This document shows positions 4,817 to 59,132 of a stretch of DNA of 64,000 bases, in pieces. The translations under genes were made by a program, and so were the position numbers. Positions within the stretch are counted from its first letter, which is position 1. Each line of letters starts with the position of its first letter. The notes under the pieces are model-generated. The model had not been told where the DNA came from, did not search any database, and saw nothing but the letters and a program-made list of their open reading frames with translations. The stretch covers positions 19,492-83,491 of the forward strand of contig JAAXWY010000003.1 of the NCBI GenBank assembly GCA_013334745.1, in the 5' to 3' direction. The DNA is from Coriobacteriia bacterium. GTDB taxonomy: Bacteria; Actinomycetota; Coriobacteriia; Anaerosomatales; JAAXUF01.

Positions 4817-5032
4817 GTGAACTTCATCGGTTTCGGTCTGCTTTACGGTCTTGCCGTCACTGCGCCGGCTCTGACCATCGGTATGGTCGGTGGCAAGGCT
4901 GCCGAGTCGACCGCGCGTCAGCCTGAGATGGCCGGCCGCATCTTCACCGTCTTCATCCTGTCCGCGGCCTTCGTCGAGGCGCTTGCGCTGCTCGGCTTCG
5001 TCCTCGGCATCATGGTTCAGGGCAAGCTCTAA
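4817..5032 (+). CDS. atpE: F0F1 ATP synthase subunit c
   Basis: 71-aa two-helix hairpin. Loop ARQPE and the carboxylate in AFVEALAL. RBS AAGGAGG upstream. Confidence 0.95.
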   Translation: MNFIGFGLLYGLAVTAPALTIGMVGGKAAESTARQPEMAGRIFTVFILSAAFVEALALLGFVLGIMVQGKL

Positions 5033-8648: not shown

Positions 8649-10076
<1,428 letters not shown>

Positions 10077-27456: not shown

Positions 27457-27505
27457 GATACCCCATGCAGCGTCAGCGCGACGCTGCGAGGGGTATCTTC
27501 CTTCT
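27457..27505 (+). terminator. Rho-independent terminator after the ABC operon
   Basis: Nt 27457-27474 pair with 27480-27497 as 8 bp, a G-U wobble, one mismatch and 8 bp. The loop is AGCGC, followed by TTCCTTCT. Confidence 0.7.
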
Positions 27506-27533: not shown

Positions 27534-28088
27534 ATGCAAGTCAAAGTGGTTGGGCGGCACATGACCGTCACGGATCCCACCCGCGCGTATGCAGAGGAGA
27601 AGTTCGGCAGGCTTGCCAAGATCTACGACGCCGAGCCGGTCGTCGCGGAGGTAGTGCTCGACGTGCGCAAGAACCGTTCGCACCCCGATCGGTTCACCGC
27701 CGAGGTCACGGTTCGGCTGAAGGGTCACGTGGTTCGAGCCGAGGAGACCTCGACTGACATGCATGCGGCAATCGACCTTGCAGCTGCCAAGGCCGAGAAG
27801 CAGATGCGTAAGTACAAGACGAAGGTCATCGATCGACGCAACCACGGCGTGGCCGTGACGAAGACGGCTGCCGGTGACACTGAGATTGCTGATGACACTG
27901 AAGCCTCGGCTGAGGTCGTGCGCATCAAGACCATCGAGACCAAGCCCATGACCGAGGAAGAAGCGGTGCTTCAGCTCGAACTTCTGGGCCACGACTTCTT
28001 TGTGTTCCGTCACGCCGATACGGAGCGAGTCAATGTTCTGTATCGCCGAAACGACGGCGACTACGGGCTGATTCAGCCGAACGCGTAG
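27534..28088 (+). CDS. hpf: Ribosome hibernation-promoting factor, long form
   Basis: 184 aa. The N-terminus MQVKVVGRHMTVTDPTRAYAEEKFGRL is typical of the RaiA/HPF fold. The C-terminal dimerisation domain is present (EEAVLQLELLGHDFFVFRH). Confidence 0.93.
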   Translation: MQVKVVGRHMTVTDPTRAYAEEKFGRLAKIYDAEPVVAEVVLDVRKNRSHPDRFTAEVTVRLKGHVVRAEETSTDMHAAIDLAAAKAEKQMRKYKTKVIDRRNHGVAVTKTAAGDTEIADDTEASAEVVRIKTIETKPMTEEEAVLQLELLGHDFFVFRHADTERVNVLYRRNDGDYGLIQPNA

Positions 28089-28120
28089 AACTCGGCCAAG
28101 TCGTTCGCAACCGCGCAGTG

Positions 28121-28155
28121 AGAAGGGCGCCTCCGGGCGCTCTTCTTGTCGTTGT
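28121..28155 (+). terminator. Hairpin plus T-rich tract after hpf
   Basis: Nt 28121-28131 pair with 28136-28146 (11 bp including one G-U, loop TCCG), followed by TGTCGTTGTT. Confidence 0.55.
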
Positions 28156-28184
28156 TGACATGCGTTCGCGGCTGTCCGTACAGT
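28155..28184 (+). promoter_or_regulatory. Sigma-70-like promoter TTGACA-N18-TACAGT
   Basis: -35 TTGACA at 28155-28160 and -10 TACAGT at 28179-28184, about 80 nt upstream of the 28264 gene. Confidence 0.45.
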
Positions 28185-28263
28185 AAGCCGTGATTCGCGC
28201 ACGCGCGAACGCACTTGGTTGACTCAGTCGTAGCAGTAATCGTCGTAGCAGGGAGCTCCCCAA

Positions 28264-28935
28264 GTGGATCAGAGCGCATCCCGCATCAAGGTCGAGGATA
28301 TCGAAGCCGCGCTCGCGGAGGTCGGAGAGATTAAGGCTGCCCGCATCGTGCCGGACGCCGACGGATCCATCGCCGAGATACACATCCTCGCACTTCCCAC
28401 CAAGGCCCCAAAGCAGCTCGTGCGCGACATTGAGTCGACGCTGATGGCTCGTTTCGGTATACCCGTTGACCACAAGAAGATCTCGATCGCGCTTCTCGGA
28501 CGCGACGCGCTCAAGGACGAGGCGCCTGTTGATGCACGTTCGACCGTTGCTCGGCCGCGTATCTGTTCGATCAATGCCACAGTGAGTGGTGTGCAGGCAT
28601 CCGCTTCGGTGGTACTGGAGATCGGTGATGCTGAGTACGTAGGCAACGCCAGCGGCCCTGCCAGCAAGACGGGGCGCGCGCGGCTCGTCGCACTGGCGGC
28701 GCTTGACGCTGTCAGCCAGTACACTGACGCCACCATTTCCTTCGCTCTCGAGGACGTAGCCATCGTGCAGCTTGGCCGCGAGAAGGTCGCGGTTTCCTGC
28801 ATCGCCCTCGTTAGCGGATTTGGAGAGCAACACCTGTCCGGCTCCGCGCTCGTACGGCAGAACGACAACGATTCCATCGTGCGTGCCACGCTCGATGCGA
28901 TCAACCGCCGTATGGGCTTCCTGACAACCGTATAA
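28264..28935 (+). CDS. Hypothetical two-domain cytoplasmic protein
   Basis: 223 aa. GTG after GGGAG. GC3-rich codons and a balanced charged composition contrast with the Ser/Arg/Ala-rich mirror ORF on the minus strand. I recognise no catalytic motif. Confidence 0.7.
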   Translation: MDQSASRIKVEDIEAALAEVGEIKAARIVPDADGSIAEIHILALPTKAPKQLVRDIESTLMARFGIPVDHKKISIALLGRDALKDEAPVDARSTVARPRICSINATVSGVQASASVVLEIGDAEYVGNASGPASKTGRARLVALAALDAVSQYTDATISFALEDVAIVQLGREKVAVSCIALVSGFGEQHLSGSALVRQNDNDSIVRATLDAINRRMGFLTTV

Positions 28936-29072
28936 CCCACAAGTTTGGACCGGCGCCGTGAACCAACGCACGAACACTGTCAGCACTGAAATGAGCGGAG
29001 CGGACAGAGTTCTTCCATCGCTAGCGGGATGGGAGAAGACCACACCAGTTCCACGAAGGGGGTCTTCTCACC

Positions 29073-29147
29073 ATGAAGCGTATGATGCTGGTTCTCGCGT
29101 CTCTCGCCGCCGTTGTTCTTTCCGGTGGCGCTTACTGGAAGATGTAG
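29073..29147 (+). CDS. Candidate 24-aa hydrophobic micro-protein (MKRMMLVLASLAAVVLSGGAYWKM)
   Basis: ATG lies 10 nt after AAGGGGG. The peptide has a single TM-like segment. It sits 48 nt upstream of the HD-GYP gene and is too short for the ORF track. The call is speculative. Confidence 0.3.
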   Translation: MKRMMLVLASLAAVVLSGGAYWKM

Positions 29148-29195
29148 TATCCGGGCGGAGTCGGTCCACTTTGAGTTGGGGGCGGGTGGGGCATA

Positions 29196-30530
29196 GTGAC
29201 TGAATCACAGCGCCCCAACCGCCCCTTCCTCACTTATGTCGGCTTAGTAGTATTGAGCGCCGTCCTGATAGTGATCACAGCATGGCGCCTATTCCCGCCG
29301 ATGGCTTCGTTCCAGCTGATTCTGCTCCTGGTTGCGGTCATTCTTTCCGAGAACTTCCGGTTCTCTATTGAGCCCTATAGTGTCTCATTGGCGTTTCCGT
29401 TGGGTGTTGCCAGCGCGATTCTGTGTGGCCCGGCAGCATCTTGTGTGGTGGCCGCGGTCTCCTCGATCAACATTGATGAGCTTAGGCAGCGCAAGCCTGC
29501 GCCAATCGTGCTCTTTAATCTGGGCCAGATGGTTCTGAGCACCGGGCTCTCTGCTTGCCTATACATGTGGCTTGGCGGGCGGGTGTTGCAGGTCGGGGTT
29601 TCCTCATTCCGGCCGCTCGGGGTTGGTGACTTTCCGCAGATCCTAGTCCCCGCGCTGGCGATGTCTGTCACCTGTGTTCTTGGCAACATGTTGCTGACCG
29701 CTGTGGGTATGGCACTGTTTACCCGCCAGCCACTCTCCTCGACCGCATCCACGATGATCACCTTTGTCCCGACCCAATTCACCCTGGCGGGGCTAGGATT
29801 CCTGGTGGCGCAAGTGCTTGCCATTTCTGCGCTTGCCCTACCGCTGGTTCTCGCACCGCTTGCGGTTGCGCGACAATTGTTCCTTCGTTACGCCGGGCTC
29901 AAGGTGGCCTATGTCGACACAATACGTTCGCTGGTAGGTGCGCTTGAGGCCAAGGACCCGTACACCCGAGGCCATTCTGAGCGCGTGTCAACATATGCCG
30001 TCGCGCTCGGCCGCTCTTGTGGCATGGACTCAAGGGACCTGGAGCGTCTCGAGTATGCTGCCTTGCTTCACGATATCGGCAAGCTGGCTGTGCCAAGCAT
30101 GGTCCTTACCAAGCCCGGGAGACTCGAGCCTGAGGAGATGCTACAGATACGGGAGCATCCTGCGCGCGGGGCAGACATGATTCGCAGGATTCCTCCGCTT
30201 CGGGACTTGGCGCAAGCGGTCTTTCAGCATCATGAGTGGTTCGATGGAACCGGTTATCCGCTGCGGCAGGGCAGCGACGAATTGTCGCTTTCGGCAAGAG
30301 TCCTGAGCATTGCTGACAGTTACGACGCCATGACTACCACCAGAGCATATCGCCCTGCCTTGAGCAGGGAAGACGCTATCGCCGAGTTGATTCGTGGCGC
30401 TGGAAGCCAGTTCGATGCGGAGATCGTTCGACTCTTCGTAGAGTGCAGGTTCGACGCGGAGGACGGCGCGCAAAGTGTGCTCGTTGAGCAAGCGATATCC
30501 ACGCGGACAGAACCCGTTCGGAGTTCCTAG
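29196..30530 (+). CDS. Polytopic membrane HD-GYP domain phosphodiesterase
   Basis: About 230 aa with 7-8 hydrophobic helices, followed by a complete HD-GYP set: GHSERV, LLHDIGK, HPARG, HHEWFDGTGYP and ADSYDAMTTTRAYR. Confidence 0.9.
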   Translation: MTESQRPNRPFLTYVGLVVLSAVLIVITAWRLFPPMASFQLILLLVAVILSENFRFSIEPYSVSLAFPLGVASAILCGPAASCVVAAVSSINIDELRQRKPAPIVLFNLGQMVLSTGLSACLYMWLGGRVLQVGVSSFRPLGVGDFPQILVPALAMSVTCVLGNMLLTAVGMALFTRQPLSSTASTMITFVPTQFTLAGLGFLVAQVLAISALALPLVLAPLAVARQLFLRYAGLKVAYVDTIRSLVGALEAKDPYTRGHSERVSTYAVALGRSCGMDSRDLERLEYAALLHDIGKLAVPSMVLTKPGRLEPEEMLQIREHPARGADMIRRIPPLRDLAQAVFQHHEWFDGTGYPLRQGSDELSLSARVLSIADSYDAMTTTRAYRPALSREDAIAELIRGAGSQFDAEIVRLFVECRFDAEDGAQSVLVEQAISTRTEPVRSS

Positions 30531-30532
30531 AC

Positions 30533-31666
30533 ATGCCTACTTCCATCATCCCGTTCTTTGGCCAAGCACCCCCATATGCGCTCGAACCAACCTTATGGGC
30601 GTCCATTTGGTTCTTGGCGGGACTAGTTGTTCTAGACCTGTTCGATATCTCGCTCCCAAGGGGCGACAGCGTAGGTGTTGCGGGTGCGCTTGCGGCTGCG
30701 TCCTTGGTTGTTCTGGGACCCGCCCAGGGCGCGGTGTTGGTCGGAATCTCAGCTGTAGGAGTCCACCTACTTCGGCGGGGGCTAAGCCAGCCTCTGCGGC
30801 TCGTTGGCGTACTAATCTCCAGAATCGCTGGAATAGTGGCGGCTGCATCTGTTCTCGCAGTTGGCGCGAGTGTTCTACCCCCCTTGGCACTCTATGGAAT
30901 TGTGCCGGCGGCTTTCCTGATGGTTGAAATCATCACGGCCCAAGCGGTGACCGGGGTCGTTTCTTCCAGATCATTCTTGAGGCTTGTTCGTGGCAACATC
31001 CGCTCTCAGGCTCCATTGTTGGCGGCACAGTGGTCAGCATCGGTGCTTCTGTTGCTGACCTATAACGGCATGGGTGGCTGGAGTCTCATTCCCGTTGTCG
31101 CGCTGCTCCTCTTGATGCGGCAGTCGTATGCGCTCTTCTTGGATATTCGAGAGACGTATCGGACTACTGTGGAGGTTCTAGTGGAGGCCGCCGAGAACCA
31201 AGACGCCCGGCGTGTCGGGCACGCGGACCGAACCGCCATGATGGCGCGCGCAATCGCGGGTAGGCTCGGGCTGGGCGCCGCCATGGTGGAGCGCATTTCT
31301 TACGCGGCCCTGTTGCATGATCTGGGCACCCTCTCGGATCGTCCGCAGGACGGCCCTGACCCTGTCTCGCGATCGATGAGCTCGGCAGATGTGGTGCACG
31401 GTGTGGAGTTCTTTCGAGATGTCGAGCCTATCCTGCGTGCCTGCGATGGGCCTGAGGGGGCGGCGAACGCGGTCGAGTCGGACTTGACGGCGGCGATGAT
31501 CGTCGCTCTTGCTAGCGATATTGACATGGCGTTTCACCCGGAGGTTGCGGCTGCTCACAAGACGACAGTGCTCGACGACTTGGCTCCGATGGTCTCGCCA
31601 ACCGTGAAGGCGCGAGTGGTTGGTGCGGCTCTTGAGCTGGGCTACCGGACGCCTGCGGTCAGATAG
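30533..31666 (+). CDS. Polytopic membrane protein with a degenerate HD-GYP-like domain (predicted inactive paralogue)
   Basis: Same layout as the upstream gene. It keeps GHADRT and LLHDLG. The HHE..DG.GYP motif is replaced by LRACDGPEGAAN and D.YDA by ASDIDMAF. It starts 2 nt after the upstream stop. Confidence 0.8.
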   Translation: MPTSIIPFFGQAPPYALEPTLWASIWFLAGLVVLDLFDISLPRGDSVGVAGALAAASLVVLGPAQGAVLVGISAVGVHLLRRGLSQPLRLVGVLISRIAGIVAAASVLAVGASVLPPLALYGIVPAAFLMVEIITAQAVTGVVSSRSFLRLVRGNIRSQAPLLAAQWSASVLLLLTYNGMGGWSLIPVVALLLLMRQSYALFLDIRETYRTTVEVLVEAAENQDARRVGHADRTAMMARAIAGRLGLGAAMVERISYAALLHDLGTLSDRPQDGPDPVSRSMSSADVVHGVEFFRDVEPILRACDGPEGAANAVESDLTAAMIVALASDIDMAFHPEVAAAHKTTVLDDLAPMVSPTVKARVVGAALELGYRTPAVR

Positions 31667-32223
31667 TGCTCGCGCTTCTCTCGATCGGCGTCGGTTTGGC
31701 TGTGGCCTGGGCGAGTGGCGGTTCACTGCGACGCTTGGCGGAGCTGAGCATCCCGTGGTCACCCTGGATCTTGGTCGCCTTCCTCGTTCAGGGAGTCGCT
31801 AGAGGGCGGCTGTTCGGCTTCGCTACGTCGGAGTTCGGGTTTGCCCTCTGGTGCATATCAAGCACCTTCTTGGTCGTACTGCTGATCACTTCATGGCGAC
31901 TACCCGGGCTCTGGATTGCTGCTGTGGGGCTGGGGCTGAATCTTGTAGTGGTGCTCGCTAACGGTGGCATGCCGGTATCTGTCCCTGAAACGGCAGTGTT
32001 GTCTCAGGCGGAACAGGTTGCCCAATCCATGGGGCTATACCAGTTTGTCGGAGTGGGCACTATATGGGGGTTTCTGGGCGATGCGATCACCTTCCGTGTG
32101 ATGTCTGGCACGTTTCTGCTCAGCGCGGGGGATGTTCTCTTGATTGTTGGCGTGGCTGTTCAGATCGTGTCGGCCACTGCAGGCGCCGTGACCAGTCCGG
32201 AGCACCTGTCTGACACGAGCTGA
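31666..32223 (+). CDS. Small integral membrane protein (from memory resembles DUF5317)
   Basis: 185 aa with 5-6 helices. Motifs VLANGGMPV and SAGDVLLIVG. Its GTG overlaps the upstream TAG by 1 nt (TAGTG). Confidence 0.75.
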   Translation: MLALLSIGVGLAVAWASGGSLRRLAELSIPWSPWILVAFLVQGVARGRLFGFATSEFGFALWCISSTFLVVLLITSWRLPGLWIAAVGLGLNLVVVLANGGMPVSVPETAVLSQAEQVAQSMGLYQFVGVGTIWGFLGDAITFRVMSGTFLLSAGDVLLIVGVAVQIVSATAGAVTSPEHLSDTS

Positions 32224-32345
32224 CGCAGCCCTTCTGGAGTTGGCACGGTAGATCGCAGATGGTCTTGTCTAGAGCTTGGAAGTGGTCTATACAATTCTCA
32301 ACTGAAACGGCGGCACCCCTCGTCGCACGAACGCTGGAGGCAAGC

Positions 32346-35300
32346 ATGAGATCCTCGCTTGGTTCTTGGGGTGCGCCCGATTTCGGCGTTGTGACTGAAC
32401 GCGAACGGCTGCTCCGTCTGCTCGAGAGTGCAGGGACTCGGCCAGTCGTACTTGCTGGAGCGTCTGGCTGCGGCAAGTCAACCGTTGCGTCTCAGTATTC
32501 GCGACGGTCTGGGCAAGAGGTGGTATGGCTAGACGCAGGCGGCGACTTTGTATCTGCGGCTCGTCTCGCAACACTTCTTGGTTCGATCACTCGCTCACAG
32601 GTGGCCGGTCAGGCATCTGACTCCGACTCCGATGGATCCCGCCTGGCGGACCTTACCGAAGCAGCTATTGAATCTGTTGAGGTCTACTCCGGGGGCAAAG
32701 GGCTTGTGGTTGTCTTGGATGACCTCGGTAGCCCCCACGGGCCAGTATCTGCGCAAGAACTCACGCGTCTCGCCAGGGCGCTGAGAAGGAGTTCGTCCCG
32801 ACTTGTTGTTACTACGCGAGCATTGAACGAGTGGCCACTTGAGACCCTGTATGAATGGGAGGTCATCGAACAGGCCGGACTCGCGGTCACCCTCAGTGAG
32901 GCCGAGCGGTACTTCGCCTATCTGGGCATCGAGGTGTCTCCTGCGGATGCCGATGCGATTCACGAGGCCAGCGGTGGTCACGCGGCCCTGCTTGCGATTC
33001 TTGCAACGCAGGTGGCCACCTACGGTGTCGGGCAGTTGGGCGTTCGGACCACGTCTCTAGAGGCCTGGCTAGAGCGGCACTTGGCGTCTTGCGAGCAGGA
33101 GGGTGACATCGCGGTCTTGGCGCTCGTTGCCCTTCTTGGCAAGGGGACGACTGCGGAAATCAAGGCGCTCGGTGAGACGGCCGCAGGTGCGGCTCTCGAC
33201 CGGTTAACTGCAGTCATGCCGCTTCTTTCAGTCTCAAGCAATGGTTTTGGTAGCACGACATTCAGAGTGCATGACCTTCTATCGAGTTTCGTGCTGGAGC
33301 GTTTCGGATTCGACCTGCCCTCGGGTTCACGTACAACCATGACAAGGGTCATTGACCATCTTTCGGCCCGGGGTGACGCCATTAGGGCCGCTGACCTGAT
33401 GGTCAGAGGAGGCAGGACTGATGGGCTGACAGCGTGGCTTGAAGAACATGGCTCCGCACTCCTGTCATCTGGTGCGTACGAGCAACTCAGAACCATGGTT
33501 GAGTTGGCGCCAGTACATGAACTGATGGCAAACCCGCGGGTCTTGCTCTTGTGGGCGGAGTTGTGTGCAGAGCTGGGCGAGTCAGATGAGTCGCTTGCCC
33601 GATGCAACGCCGTGCGATCACTCTCGGATCATGAGGGAGACGCAGTGACTTCTGCGAAGGCCGTTTCGCTGAGCCTGCAGTGCTATTGCAGGTTGCAGCG
33701 TTTCGAAGATGCGGAGCGGGTTGCGAACGAGGTTCTCTCTAGCAGATCCGCCGGCATTCCCGCGGAGCTTCGGGGCGAGGCGCTGATTGCGACGGCCCGC
33801 GCAAGACTCACGCGTGGTGGGACCCCAGAGGAGGTCCGGGCTGTGCTTGAGGAGGCGTGTGTGCTTACCGCGCAAGTGCCGGAGGGCGCTCACATCAGAT
33901 ACACAGCCGCAACGTTGCTTGCCCTGGTGCCGATACTCTCGGATGGTGACTGGATGGCAGGGACGCGTGTTCTGTCGCCACTAGTCGGCACACCACAGCA
34001 GCTCATCAGTTCACGAGTCATCGTGATGGGCAATTTGGGGCTCATGCTGCTGGAGGCGGGGAGACTCCACAGGTCCCTCTCCTTGCTGCGGGCGGCGCTG
34101 GACGAGGCTCGGCGATTTGGCCTGTATACGTATACGGGCGCGTACGCTCCTCCGCTCGGCTGCGCAGAGGTTGCCGCCGGTCACGTGGAGGAGGGAATCA
34201 GGCGCGTCTACGAGGGCATTGATACGGCGGAAGCGAACGGTGAATCCAATGACTCTGCCATCGACAGGGTCTACCTTGCAGTCATACTTCGCGCATCCGG
34301 GCAACTCGAAGAAGCGCTCGAGCAGGCCGAGGTCGCGTTCGAGCAACTCTCTGTCGCCGACAATCTCCTCTTTCGCCGACTCGCGGCCCTCGAAGTCGCC
34401 GCATCGTTACTGGCGCTCGGCGATGAGTCCGCAGCGAGGGCATGGACCGAGTCTGTGGCGGCCGAGGGCGCCAGGCCGAACAGCTACCATCGCCTGCGGT
34501 CCGACATGATCCTGGCCGAGGTGGACCGTCGCGAAGGGGACTTCGAGGGTGCCCTGGCTCGCCTACGCCGCAACGAGGAGTACATCCTGTCCGAGAATCC
34601 CAACTGGCAGGTCGCGATGTACTGCCGCGCGTTCCCCGAGCTGCTCGGACTGTTCACGGCTGCGCTCGGTCCCGATCGGCTGCCGGTACACATGCTGCGA
34701 ATGATCCTGCCCGAGCAGGCGGAGGTCATTCTCGGCAGAGTGAAGCCCCTGCTCGATACCCCGACGTGGCGAGCACTCGGCGCGCGGCTGCTCGGCGACG
34801 ATGAATTCGCGAAGTATCTCGAGCGTGGCGGGTTGCCGCTGTGCCACGTCCGGATGTTCGGCGGACTCGAGGTCAGTATCGGTGGGCGCTCGGTGCGTGA
34901 GCGCGACTGGCGCAAGCGCAAGGCCCGCGTGCTGTTCGCCATGCTCATGCTTCGGCGCGGCCAGGACGTTGCGCGGGAGCAGATATTCGAGCACCTGTGG
35001 CCCGAAATGGACGAGGAGCGCGCGAAGAGCAACCTCTACGTGGTGTGGAGCACGATGAAGTCAGTGCTCATGGGACCCGATGCCGAGAAGGGCGCGAAGT
35101 GCCCGTACGTCGAGAGCGTTGGGGGTGTCTGCCGGTCCATTCGTTCGACGGTTCGCACGGACGTCGACGCATTCGAGTCCGCCTGCGCAACTGCACATGC
35201 CGCCGAGGCGGACGGAGATCGCAAGACGGCACTGGCGTCGTATCGGCAGATCGCGGACCTGTATCGGGGCGACCTGCTGCCCGGAGACTGCTACGAGGAT

Positions 35301-35645
35301 TGGTTCGGCAATCTTAGGGATCACTATCGTCACGAGTTCATGGACGCGATGCTGCGTGCGACCGACATCCACCTCGAAGACGGCGACCCTCACACGGCCC
35401 TCATCTTCGCGCGTAAGGCGCTCCAGCATGATCAGTTCCGAGAGGATCTGTACCAGGCCGCAGTGCGGTGCCAGATTGCAGCCGGACAGCGGTCGTCGGC
35501 CATCGACACGTATCTGCTCTGCCGAGACCGACTGTGCGAGGAGCTCGGTTTGGATCCATCGCCCGAGATGCGCGCCCTCTACGACCAGATTCTGGCCATG
35601 GAGGACCGTCCGACCGGTGTGGACTTCGACCCCCTGGCGGACTGA
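32346..35645 (+). CDS. STAND/MalT-like P-loop NTPase with TPR-like middle region and C-terminal SARP module (OmpR-type winged helix plus BTAD)
   Basis: ATG at 32346 lies 5 nt after GGAGG. Walker A LAGASGCGKST and Walker B LVVVLDDLG. A long helical-repeat region follows. From about nt 34846 the sequence reads VRMFGGLEV...ARVLFAMLMLRRGQDVAREQIFEHLWP (winged helix), then YRGDLLPGDCYEDWF...CEELGLDPSPEMRALYDQIL (BTAD). Confidence 0.88.
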   Translation: MRSSLGSWGAPDFGVVTERERLLRLLESAGTRPVVLAGASGCGKSTVASQYSRRSGQEVVWLDAGGDFVSAARLATLLGSITRSQVAGQASDSDSDGSRLADLTEAAIESVEVYSGGKGLVVVLDDLGSPHGPVSAQELTRLARALRRSSSRLVVTTRALNEWPLETLYEWEVIEQAGLAVTLSEAERYFAYLGIEVSPADADAIHEASGGHAALLAILATQVATYGVGQLGVRTTSLEAWLERHLASCEQEGDIAVLALVALLGKGTTAEIKALGETAAGAALDRLTAVMPLLSVSSNGFGSTTFRVHDLLSSFVLERFGFDLPSGSRTTMTRVIDHLSARGDAIRAADLMVRGGRTDGLTAWLEEHGSALLSSGAYEQLRTMVELAPVHELMANPRVLLLWAELCAELGESDESLARCNAVRSLSDHEGDAVTSAKAVSLSLQCYCRLQRFEDAERVANEVLSSRSAGIPAELRGEALIATARARLTRGGTPEEVRAVLEEACVLTAQVPEGAHIRYTAATLLALVPILSDGDWMAGTRVLSPLVGTPQQLISSRVIVMGNLGLMLLEAGRLHRSLSLLRAALDEARRFGLYTYTGAYAPPLGCAEVAAGHVEEGIRRVYEGIDTAEANGESNDSAIDRVYLAVILRASGQLEEALEQAEVAFEQLSVADNLLFRRLAALEVAASLLALGDESAARAWTESVAAEGARPNSYHRLRSDMILAEVDRREGDFEGALARLRRNEEYILSENPNWQVAMYCRAFPELLGLFTAALGPDRLPVHMLRMILPEQAEVILGRVKPLLDTPTWRALGARLLGDDEFAKYLERGGLPLCHVRMFGGLEVSIGGRSVRERDWRKRKARVLFAMLMLRRGQDVAREQIFEHLWPEMDEERAKSNLYVVWSTMKSVLMGPDAEKGAKCPYVESVGGVCRSIRSTVRTDVDAFESACATAHAAEADGDRKTALASYRQIADLYRGDLLPGDCYEDWFGNLRDHYRHEFMDAMLRATDIHLEDGDPHTALIFARKALQHDQFREDLYQAAVRCQIAAGQRSSAIDTYLLCRDRLCEELGLDPSPEMRALYDQILAMEDRPTGVDFDPLAD

Positions 35646-35651
35646 CTCGCG

Positions 35652-35700
35652 GGACCTTACCGCGAAGTGGTAACTGACTGGTAAGGAATCGGTAAGGTCC
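35652..35700 (+). repeat. Three GGTAA(C/G) direct repeats at an 11-bp period plus one inverted copy (10-bp inverted repeat GGACCTTACC / GGTAAGGTCC)
   Basis: GGTAA starts at 35669, 35680 and 35691. CCTTACC is at 35655-35661. Nt 35652-35661 are perfectly complementary to 35691-35700. The element begins 7 nt after the regulator's stop codon. Confidence 0.8.
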
Positions 35701-35933
35701 GTCCGATACGCTCCTTCCCGTCGGCCCGCCGAAGTGGCCCGCCGACACGGACGAGGCTCGTCGGGCTCCCTGACAGACAGGGCGTTGCACGCGGCGGGGC
35801 AGGCTCACGACTGGTGAGGAGCGGGTCTCCTGAGGGGCATCGGAAACGAGCCGGTGCACCGTCGGCTGGGCCCGATGGGTTTCGTCCCAACGAGCGGAGC
35901 GAGCGCGCAGAGCAGCTCCCCATTGGAGGGCGC

Positions 35934-35961
35934 GGGCGGCCGGTCTGGTGGCTGGCCGCCC
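35934..35961 (+). other. Perfect 8-bp GC hairpin (GGGCGGCC-N12-GGCCGCCC) upstream of the secA promoter
   Basis: Nt 35934-35941 pair with 35954-35961. No U-tract follows. It could terminate a transcript coming from the upstream intergenic region. Confidence 0.3.
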
Positions 35962-35981
35962 GCAGCCCGACCGCACCCCTG

Positions 35982-35990
35982 TGATAGAAT
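35982..35990 (+). promoter_or_regulatory. Extended -10 promoter element TGATAGAAT for secA
   Basis: Matches TGnTAnAAT, 51 nt upstream of the secA ATG. It shares TAGAATCG with the element at 23049. Confidence 0.4.
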
Positions 35991-36040
35991 CGGGGCTGCT
36001 TTTCACCCACAAATCCCACCATTCGAAGGTGTCGTTACAC

Positions 36041-38815
<2,775 letters not shown>

Positions 38816-58781: not shown

Positions 58782-59132
58782 GGGGGCGACTGGATTCGAC
58801 ACGATAGTTCTGAGGGAGGAAGCAGGCCGCGGTCTCCTCGCCGCGTTAAACAGGGGAAAACGCCAATTAACTGGCACCAATAACTACGCTCTCGCTGCCT
58901 AAATAGCCAGCGACGCCGACCCGGTGCACGTCCCCGACACCGGTAAGGCGCAACAGAGGGGAATGCCGCCAAGGACGTTGTCAGTATGCCGAGGCGAAAG
59001 ACAGAACTGACTGGGAAAGGGCGCGCCTGTCACGGTGTGCTGCCCCGACCGAGACTCAATCCGTGACTGAGCCTGGAGATGCCTCCTAGGGTGCTACCGT
59101 GGACCGGAGTTCGATTCTCCGCGCCTCCACCA
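58782..59132 (+). ncRNA. ssrA: Transfer-messenger RNA (tmRNA)
   Basis: 5' GGGGGCGACTGGATTCGAC... and 3' ...GGAGTTCGATTCTCCGCGCCTCCACCA. The acceptor stem GGGGGCG/CGCCTCC has the G3:U pair. Tag frame 58855-58902 ends ...NNYALAA-TAA. It lies directly downstream of smpB. Confidence 0.95.

Follow-up and report, generated by a model that had tools for sequence, protein, structure and literature searches.

A 64,000-nucleotide stretch of DNA from an uncultured Coriobacteriia bacterium (hereafter the window; contig JAAXWY010000003.1) contains, shortly behind a gene for a large regulator, three GGTAAG-like repeats at an 11-bp period, followed at a short distance by a hexamer resembling a -10 element. 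Comparison of this array with related loci, together with analysis of the flanking regulator gene and of the segment that lies between the array and secA, suggests that the repeats are probably a box for an activator of the Streptomyces antibiotic regulatory protein (SARP) type and form part of a promoter driving a structured RNA, with the adjacent regulator as the activator. The evidence comes from comparative sequence analysis and is set out below, beginning with the array itself.

The three units, all on the + strand, are GGTAAC at 35669-35674 (unit 1), GGTAAG at 35680-35685 (unit 2) and GGTAAG at 35691-35696 (unit 3), and the period between them, read from the window sequence, is exactly 11 bp. 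The -10-like hexamer TACGCT (35707-35712, + strand) lies exactly 10 nt past unit 3, and a transcription start is predicted near 35719. Direct reading bears out the positions of the three units, of the inverted heptamer CCTTACC at 35655-35661 and of TACGCT 10 nt past the last unit as they had been given in a preliminary description made from the sequence of the window; the inverted repeat of which the heptamer forms part does pair perfectly, as stated there, but is one base longer than was claimed (35652-35662 with 35690-35700). The recurrence of TACGCT in another promoter, to which the same description had drawn attention, carries no weight, since the window has 20 copies of this hexamer where 16 are expected. 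A chance origin of the phased array is excluded. When up to one mismatch was allowed, GGTAAS-N5-GGTAAS was found in the 64-kb window at only two overlapping places, both of them here, where 0.15 were expected, and none of 100 shuffles reached two matches. In a position-weight scan of the window, phased-pair scores were 19-21 at the array versus 9.5 at the next-best place, and the window holds a single box site. A scan of positions 35400-36200 for sigma-70 promoter and terminator consensus sequences found nothing, and no -35 consensus; such an empty scan fits an activator-dependent promoter and is uninformative alone.

Fifteen orthologous loci, all in metagenome-assembled genomes (MAGs) of Coriobacteriia or Actinomycetota, were obtained by scanning a genome collection with the alignment of the regulator. 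An independent sample was drawn from metagenomes with a pattern derived solely from the core of the RNA, about 110 nt downstream of the array, which gave 45 loci; 43 of these had enough upstream sequence, and box counts therefore refer to 15 + 43 = 58 loci. The layout seen in the window, in which three 6-nt units are separated by 5 nt and the last is followed after 10 nt by the hexamer, recurs in exact register and without insertions or deletions in 15 of 15 genome loci, and the same layout stands at the expected distance in the 43 metagenome loci that had been selected by the RNA core. Conservation is weak in the upstream unit 1 (3.9 bits over the 15 loci) and strong in unit 2 (7.5 bits) and in the promoter-proximal unit 3 (7.3 bits), while the spacers and flanks hold 0.2-0.4 bits per column. 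The hexamer carries 6.5 bits of information, with A2 and T6 invariant, and its variants among the genome loci include TACGCT, TACGGT, TACGAT, TAATGT and TATCGT. Among 50 non-redundant loci, units 2 and 3 have the consensus G-[G/T]-T-[A/T]-A-G and the hexamer has T-A-c-G-a-T, with column counts of G48, T46, A46 and G46 for unit 2, of G46, T49, A46 and G47 for unit 3, and of T45, A50 and T50 for the hexamer. A box score of at least 17 is reached in 91% of the 58 loci, against a maximum of 16 among 1809 segments of 200 nt taken at random from those loci. The original box score rewarded A2 and T6, so the box was re-placed by units 2 and 3 alone as a control: 46 of the 58 loci then had nAnnnT at a spacing of 10 and 9 had it at 13 nt, and each of the other spacings tested accounted for 0-2 loci. 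The full box-plus-hexamer scan of all loci returned only four marginal extra matches in 1.26 Mb. The fixed spacing, the conservation of the contact positions, the free variation of the spacers and the invariant A2 and T6 together point to a promoter with an activator site and not to a hairpin. The two invariant positions of the hexamer are those most critical for recognition by sigma factors.

One locus, L001, carries two further 11-bp phased GKTAWS arrays, at 4934-4950 in the gap between the DUF5317 gene and the regulator gene, and at 152-179 over the hpf ribosome-binding site, so that with the main site it has three phased matches where 0.01 were expected. As signs of a regulon or of autoregulation these arrays were rejected as general evidence, being without conserved counterparts in the window and having no hexamer at 10 nt; for the one at hpf a conserved hairpin is a partial explanation. 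They could be either lineage-specific autoregulation or chance.

The proposed promoter can be compared with SARP-dependent promoters whose structure has been solved. If the hexamer is set at -12 to -7, counting from the predicted start site, the units fall at about -50 to -45, at -39 to -34, which is the place of a -35 element, and at -28 to -23. In the cryo-electron microscopy structure of AfsR the afs box consists of two 11-bp repeats extending from -40 to -19 and centred on -29.5; the upstream repeat overlaps a poor -35 element and the -10 element is suboptimal, each AfsR protomer touches the first 8 bp of its repeat, and region 4 of sigma lies on top of the SARP dimer, an arrangement described as 'sigma adaptation' (PMC10936776). 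A rule quoted in the same paper puts the distance from the 3' heptamer repeat to the -10 element at 8 bp (PMC10936776). Many SARP sites comprise three heptameric repeats with 4-nt spacers, which overlap or abut the -35 element and are oriented toward the -10 (PMC10972967). The window and the 58 loci have direct repeats at an 11-bp period, three in number, and, on the basis of the predicted start, these cover the -35 region and the spacer, with a -10 element nearby and a poor -35. The -10 lies 10 nt past the hexamer core of the last unit, which is equivalent to 8-9 nt past a contacted unit of 7-8 bp. The geometry would accordingly match the solved SARP promoters within 1-2 bp, depending on the limits chosen for the unit and on the predicted start.

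The regulator gene (32346-35645, + strand) encodes a protein of 1099 residues with an N-terminal AAA_16/STAND-type ATPase, a tetratricopeptide repeat (TPR) region and a C-terminal SARP domain. Searches against Pfam gave AAA_16 (4e-8), TPR, and BTAD (PF03704; 4e-22) over profile positions 1-146 of 146. The SARP domain (34842-35597, + strand) is made up of an OmpR-type winged helix, with recognition helix ...SNLYVVWSTMKSVL, and then BTAD. Directly before BTAD the Trans_reg_C profile matches below threshold (E = 0.001, 19.5 bits versus a cut-off of 26.2), and among the orthologues there is a sub-threshold Trans_reg_C match at the right place in 12 of 12, and BTAD in 12 of 12. The solved structures matched in a single-sequence phmmer search of the PDB were EmbR (2.9e-8) and AfsR (2e-7) and no others, and the matches of an ortholog profile were likewise limited to EmbR (4e-10) and AfsR. 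An AlphaFold model of the last 330 residues (predicted local distance difference test score 89.4, predicted template-modelling score 0.80) shows a β-sheet, three helices and a β-hairpin wing, followed by a helical bundle. Its top six Foldseek matches are the AfsR SARP domain in transcription-initiation complexes (8k60, 8hvr) and EmbR, with E values from 2e-10 to 5e-9 and target-normalised TM-scores up to 0.79 (0.78 for AfsR); lower-ranked matches are generic TPR proteins. The alignments with AfsR and EmbR, by phmmer and by Foldseek alike, extend over the winged helix. By the model and by these comparisons the regulator is judged to carry a bona fide SARP fold, and the C-terminal SARP domain ascribed to it at the outset is upheld by Pfam, phmmer, profile and AlphaFold/Foldseek results alike.

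In respect of membership of the SARP family, the protein has both a winged helix-turn-helix and a BTAD immediately C-terminal to it, but the domain does not have the expected N-terminal position: it forms the last approximately 260 of the 1099 residues, behind AAA_16 and the TPRs. In the small, medium, large and SARP-LAL classes covered by a 2024 review the SARP domain is always N-terminal (PMC10972967). The domain order ATPase-TPR-SARP is thus unusual, reversing that of described SARPs. Among homologues, the AfsR-like P0013, P0027 and P0050 have the SARP domain at the N-terminus, and the uncharacterised P0003 and P0018 show the C-terminal arrangement. The protein database contains very few relatives of the regulator, whose orthologues are syntenic in the 15 genome loci.

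The start of the regulator gene is ambiguous (32224-32348). The longest open reading frame begins at 32259, and the likely start is the ATG at 32346, which has a GGAGG ribosome-binding site before it and corresponds in the alignment to the start of the orthologue P0002. A public annotation of the same protein (940 amino acids) begins about 160 codons further in, and would drop the P-loop region. In locus L013 (about 8900-9300) the regulator orthologue appears to be frameshifted in the recognition helix, with box and RNA intact; an indel error of long-read sequencing could account for this, or the regulator may be decaying.

Regulator, box and RNA are closely linked. In 55 of the 58 loci a gene for a SARP-domain protein is found upstream of the box on the same strand, the contigs of the remaining three ending too early. 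Distances between regulator and box were measured by tblastn anchoring: in 43 loci the box starts at most 60 nt past the regulator stop codon, and in nine loci intervening genes put it 561-2780 nt away. The distance from box to RNA core is 77-125 nt even where the regulator is remote. The box thus stays by the RNA, which argues that the repeats belong to the 5' end of the RNA gene rather than to the regulator gene's 3' end. In locus L015 secA is not adjacent, and regulator, box and RNA are all present. There is also a correlation between the sequence of the recognition helix, located at about 35010-35060 in the window, and that of the units: proteins with YV[V/I]WS go with GGTAAG, GGTTAG or GTTAAG units, and all nine YVTWS proteins with units of the GTTCAG/GTTGAA type, which have C or G at position 4. 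This suggestive pattern may reflect co-evolution of protein and DNA.

Common to all loci is a stretch of about 150-250 nt downstream of the hexamer, which in the window corresponds to a predicted structured non-coding RNA of about 250 nt (35719-35968, + strand) conserved in 15 loci from genomes and 45 from metagenomes. A 5' hairpin (35720-35746, + strand), variable in sequence, starts within a few nucleotides of the predicted transcription start. It is followed by a long-range closing helix, formed by 35756-35767 with 35869-35880 (+ strand), which precedes and follows the invariant core GGUG-A-GGAG-loop-CUCC-UGAGGGG-CAYC (35813-35841, + strand; CAUC in the window), also written GGUGAGGAG...CUCCUGAGGGGCAYC. 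At the 3' end is a GC-rich, terminator-like hairpin (35928-35968, + strand; -44.5 kcal/mol, z = -4.14) without a clear T-run; none of 200 shuffles folds as well, and other loci have a hairpin of different sequence at the same place. This hairpin is predicted to terminate the RNA. Among 48 non-redundant sequences, 96.3% of the cells of the proposed pairing are paired, versus 34-53% with slid partners, and double changes occupy 73 cells versus 16-23 in the slid controls; the covariation score was reached by none of 500 shuffles. The frequent G-U pairs of the + strand indicate that it is this strand which is transcribed.

No conserved open reading frame was found in the RNA segment, the longest frames having a median of 27.5 codons and lying in random frames. 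A small protein gene resembling afsS, considered as the content of this segment, was rejected on the grounds that no frame is conserved and that the loop of the core is 5, 6, 7, 8 or 9 nt long across the loci. No Rfam family was found for the RNA when the window and four loci were searched against Rfam 15 at gathering thresholds and at permissive E-values; the sole match there, a spurious one to sR1, scored 16 bits against a gathering score of 45. In the literature nothing relevant was found on an RNA upstream of secA or on a SARP that targets an RNA, a search whose incomplete coverage makes it weak evidence of novelty. The element is a candidate new structured RNA with about 60 examples, single-copy in the window. 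On its right the RNA gene is bounded by the secA promoter, an extended -10 sequence TGTGATAGAAT (35980-35990, with the hexamer at 35985-35990; + strand) that lies outside the box and is kept as TGTGnTA[G/A]AAT in 14 of the 15 genome loci; secA itself starts at 36041 (Pfam). The secA gene has a conserved 5' untranslated region of about 45 nt, and its promoter is separate from the one driven by the box.

The architecture, the SARP fold, the linkage of regulator, box and RNA, and the RNA structure have been computed, and a model can be built on them in which it is inferred that a protein binds and activates, which protein this is, and where transcription starts. SARP protomers of the adjacent regulator would bind side by side, one helical turn apart, on the units: on the strong ones at about -39 to -34 and -28 to -23, and on the weaker third at about -50 to -45. 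The bound protomers would replace the missing -35 element and offer a docking surface for region 4 of sigma and RNA polymerase, as AfsR does at afsS. Rightward transcription would start about 7 nt past TACGCT, near 35719, and yield the structured non-coding RNA of about 250 nt, ending at the 35928-35968 hairpin before the secA promoter. By analogy with AfsR, the N-terminal ATPase and the TPRs might hold the SARP domain in check until they bind a nucleotide or signal. The balance of the evidence leans slightly towards this being an undescribed module, in which an inverted SARP of the signal transduction ATPase with numerous domains (STAND) class is dedicated to the promoter of a new class of structured RNA in an uncultured, anaerobic clade of Actinomycetota.

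Several considerations weigh against the proposal that the adjacent regulator activates the RNA through this box. The 10 bp that separate the last unit from the -10 element disagree with the 8-bp rule, and agreement is obtained only if the contacted unit is about 8 bp long (GGTAAGgt). Response regulators of the OmpR/PhoB type also bind direct repeats of the same period at a similar distance from the -10. Their sites share this geometry, and so the binder cannot be told from geometry alone. As few as one or two evolutionary events may underlie the correlation of units with recognition helix. Synteny in the clade extends to regulator, RNA, secA and hpf alike, and their adjacency is thus weaker evidence than it would be if the gene order had been shuffled. 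Finally, all the genomes are MAGs of uncultured organisms.

Of the alternatives, the one that survives best accepts the repeats as a real activator box and assigns it to another protein of the OmpR/PhoB family (PhoP-, GlnR- or MtrA-like) encoded elsewhere; on this view the SARP-like regulator next to the box either does not bind there or has the box in common with that protein, in the manner of PhoP and AfsR at the afs box. Sites made of direct repeats of about 6-7 bp, with an 11-bp period and in place of the -35, characterise the OmpR/PhoB family as a whole, and the L001 units TGTTAA and GGTTAT resemble half sites of the WalR/MtrA type. PhoP and AfsR, moreover, compete for the same site at afsS (PMC10972967). 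Against this, a search found no gene for a receiver-domain response regulator linked to the box, either in the window or in any of the 60 loci, while a SARP-domain gene is linked to it in 55 of the 55 loci with enough upstream sequence, and the variants of the unit track the recognition helix of that protein. Binding by a protein from elsewhere is consequently considered unlikely.

The inverted heptamer CCTTACC (+ strand letters; on the - strand at 35655-35661) lies in the left arm of the 11-bp inverted repeat and raises a different question, namely whether the repeat forms a 3' hairpin that terminates or stabilises the regulator mRNA, the direct repeats being incidental. The preliminary description had offered an activator box and a terminator hairpin as equal readings. 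The first of these has gained strong comparative support from the architecture of the 58 loci, from the geometry, from the SARP domain and from the RNA downstream; the terminator has gained none of this kind, and as a reason for the repeats the hairpin is improbable. The stem of 35652-35662 with 35690-35700 is a perfect one of 11 bp, but 27 nt separate its arms, there is no T-run, and the terminator scan is empty, so that it does not have the make-up of an intrinsic terminator. The fold of 35640-35715 (-23.3 kcal/mol, z = -0.61) is an ordinary one, 54 of 200 shuffles folding as well, and at minimum energy CCUUACC is paired with the middle unit and not with the last. Exact inverted heptamers are found in 6 of 49 non-redundant loci, always at a fixed position 14-15 nt before unit 1, compared with a null rate of 0.0017, and in locus L047 the inverted heptamer CCTAAAC matches unit 2, GTTTAGG, by a double compensatory change. 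The other 43 of the 49 loci, in which the inverted copy is missing, nevertheless keep the phased units and the hexamer, and in the nine loci already mentioned the repeats are not directly behind the regulator gene. Its distribution among the loci therefore marks the inverted copy as a real add-on of one subclade that includes the window, with at best a secondary, subclade-specific role on top of the box; it could be a hairpin in a read-through transcript of the regulator gene, or a fourth, inverted protein site.

That the repeats act in RNA, as GGUAAG sites for a protein or the ribosome in a read-through transcript from the regulator gene to secA, is very improbable: every unit is on the transcribed strand, and the phased pairs of L001 lie in transcribed regions (the hpf ribosome-binding site and the gap between DUF5317 and the regulator), but those pairs have no conserved counterpart in the window and the hpf one is partly explained by a conserved hairpin, neither an invariant nAnnnT at exactly 10 nt nor an exact 11-nt DNA helical period would be needed, and the conserved RNA structure begins only past the hexamer.

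Among known systems the closest to the proposed SARP-driven promoter is AfsR-afsS of Streptomyces coelicolor (structures 8HVR, 8K60 and 8JKE). Each has a large STAND-class regulator that combines an ATPase (NOD) with TPRs and a SARP domain (winged helix plus BTAD), and direct repeats in 11-bp phase over the -35 region and spacer of a promoter with a weak -10. The afsS gene is short and lies immediately downstream of afsR, and the placement of the target is alike here. The two systems differ in domain order, which is SARP-NOD-TPR in AfsR and ATPase-TPR-SARP here; in the box, with two CGTT(T/C)ATCG units there and three GGTAAG-like units here; in the product, AfsS being a small protein and the present one a structured RNA without an open reading frame; and in setting, since the present system belongs to uncultured, anaerobic, Coriobacteriia-like Actinomycetota and is surrounded by housekeeping genes (hpf, secA), without a biosynthetic cluster.

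Three direct repeats at an 11-bp period (7 nt plus a 4-nt spacer) are shared with ActII-ORF4, DnrI, FdmR1, VlmI and the SARP-LAL regulator PimR. In those proteins, however, the SARP domain is N-terminal and the targets are antibiotic biosynthetic genes, the consensus (for example of the TCGAG type) is unrelated to GGTAAG, and the repeat-to-(-10) distance is 8 bp for heptamers rather than the 10 bp counted here from the hexamer core. At the pho box of PhoB/OmpR-type regulators, winged-helix protomers are arranged head-to-tail on direct repeats of one helical turn that replace the -35, about 10 bp from the -10. The proteins concerned there are receiver-domain response regulators, whereas none is encoded near the present box, and the linked protein, which has a BTAD, matches structures of SARPs and not that of PhoB. 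In sequence the C-terminal domain is matched best by EmbR of Mycobacterium tuberculosis (2FEZ), which has the same winged-helix plus BTAD fold, but adds a C-terminal FHA domain with control by phosphorylation, and is without the ATPase or TPR sensor.

Upstream of the regulator gene the order hpf, a gene for a 223-amino-acid protein of unknown function, HD_5 (HD-GYP-like), HD, DUF5317 and regulator (27534-35645 in the window) is kept across the clade in loci L001-L016, which suggests a signalling module tied to the regulator; in one subclade DUF5317 is found behind the regulator instead. In the 5' leader of hpf there is a hairpin (27460-27497 in the window, 113-158 in L001) whose base, GATACCC...GGGTATC, is common to the two genomes, the HPF proteins of which are about 54% identical. 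Ending about 35 nt before the start codon, it may be a leader element. A full-length raiA RNA (RF03072; 23065-23305, + strand; 163 bits, with a gathering score of 101) is found about 4 kb upstream of hpf rather than immediately before it, and a tmRNA gene (RF00023; 142 bits) is located at 58782-59132 on the + strand.

SARPs have been studied almost exclusively as switches of Streptomyces antibiotic clusters, with the DNA-binding part always in front. If the interpretation proposed here is correct, the regulator would be the first SARP to have an RNA gene as its direct target, and to act outside secondary metabolism. The SARP mechanism would then be at work in a housekeeping setting, beside a ribosome hibernation factor, SecA and HD-GYP signalling, and with the order of sensor and output reversed, and the replacement of the -35 element by phased repeats ('sigma adaptation') would extend to distant, anaerobic and uncultured actinobacteria. 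The operator, three copies of G[G/T]T[A/T]AG plus TAnGnT, is directly testable and could serve as an orthogonal inducible promoter. A candidate RNA family with a dedicated transcription factor would also provide an experimental handle of a kind that most orphan RNAs do not offer.

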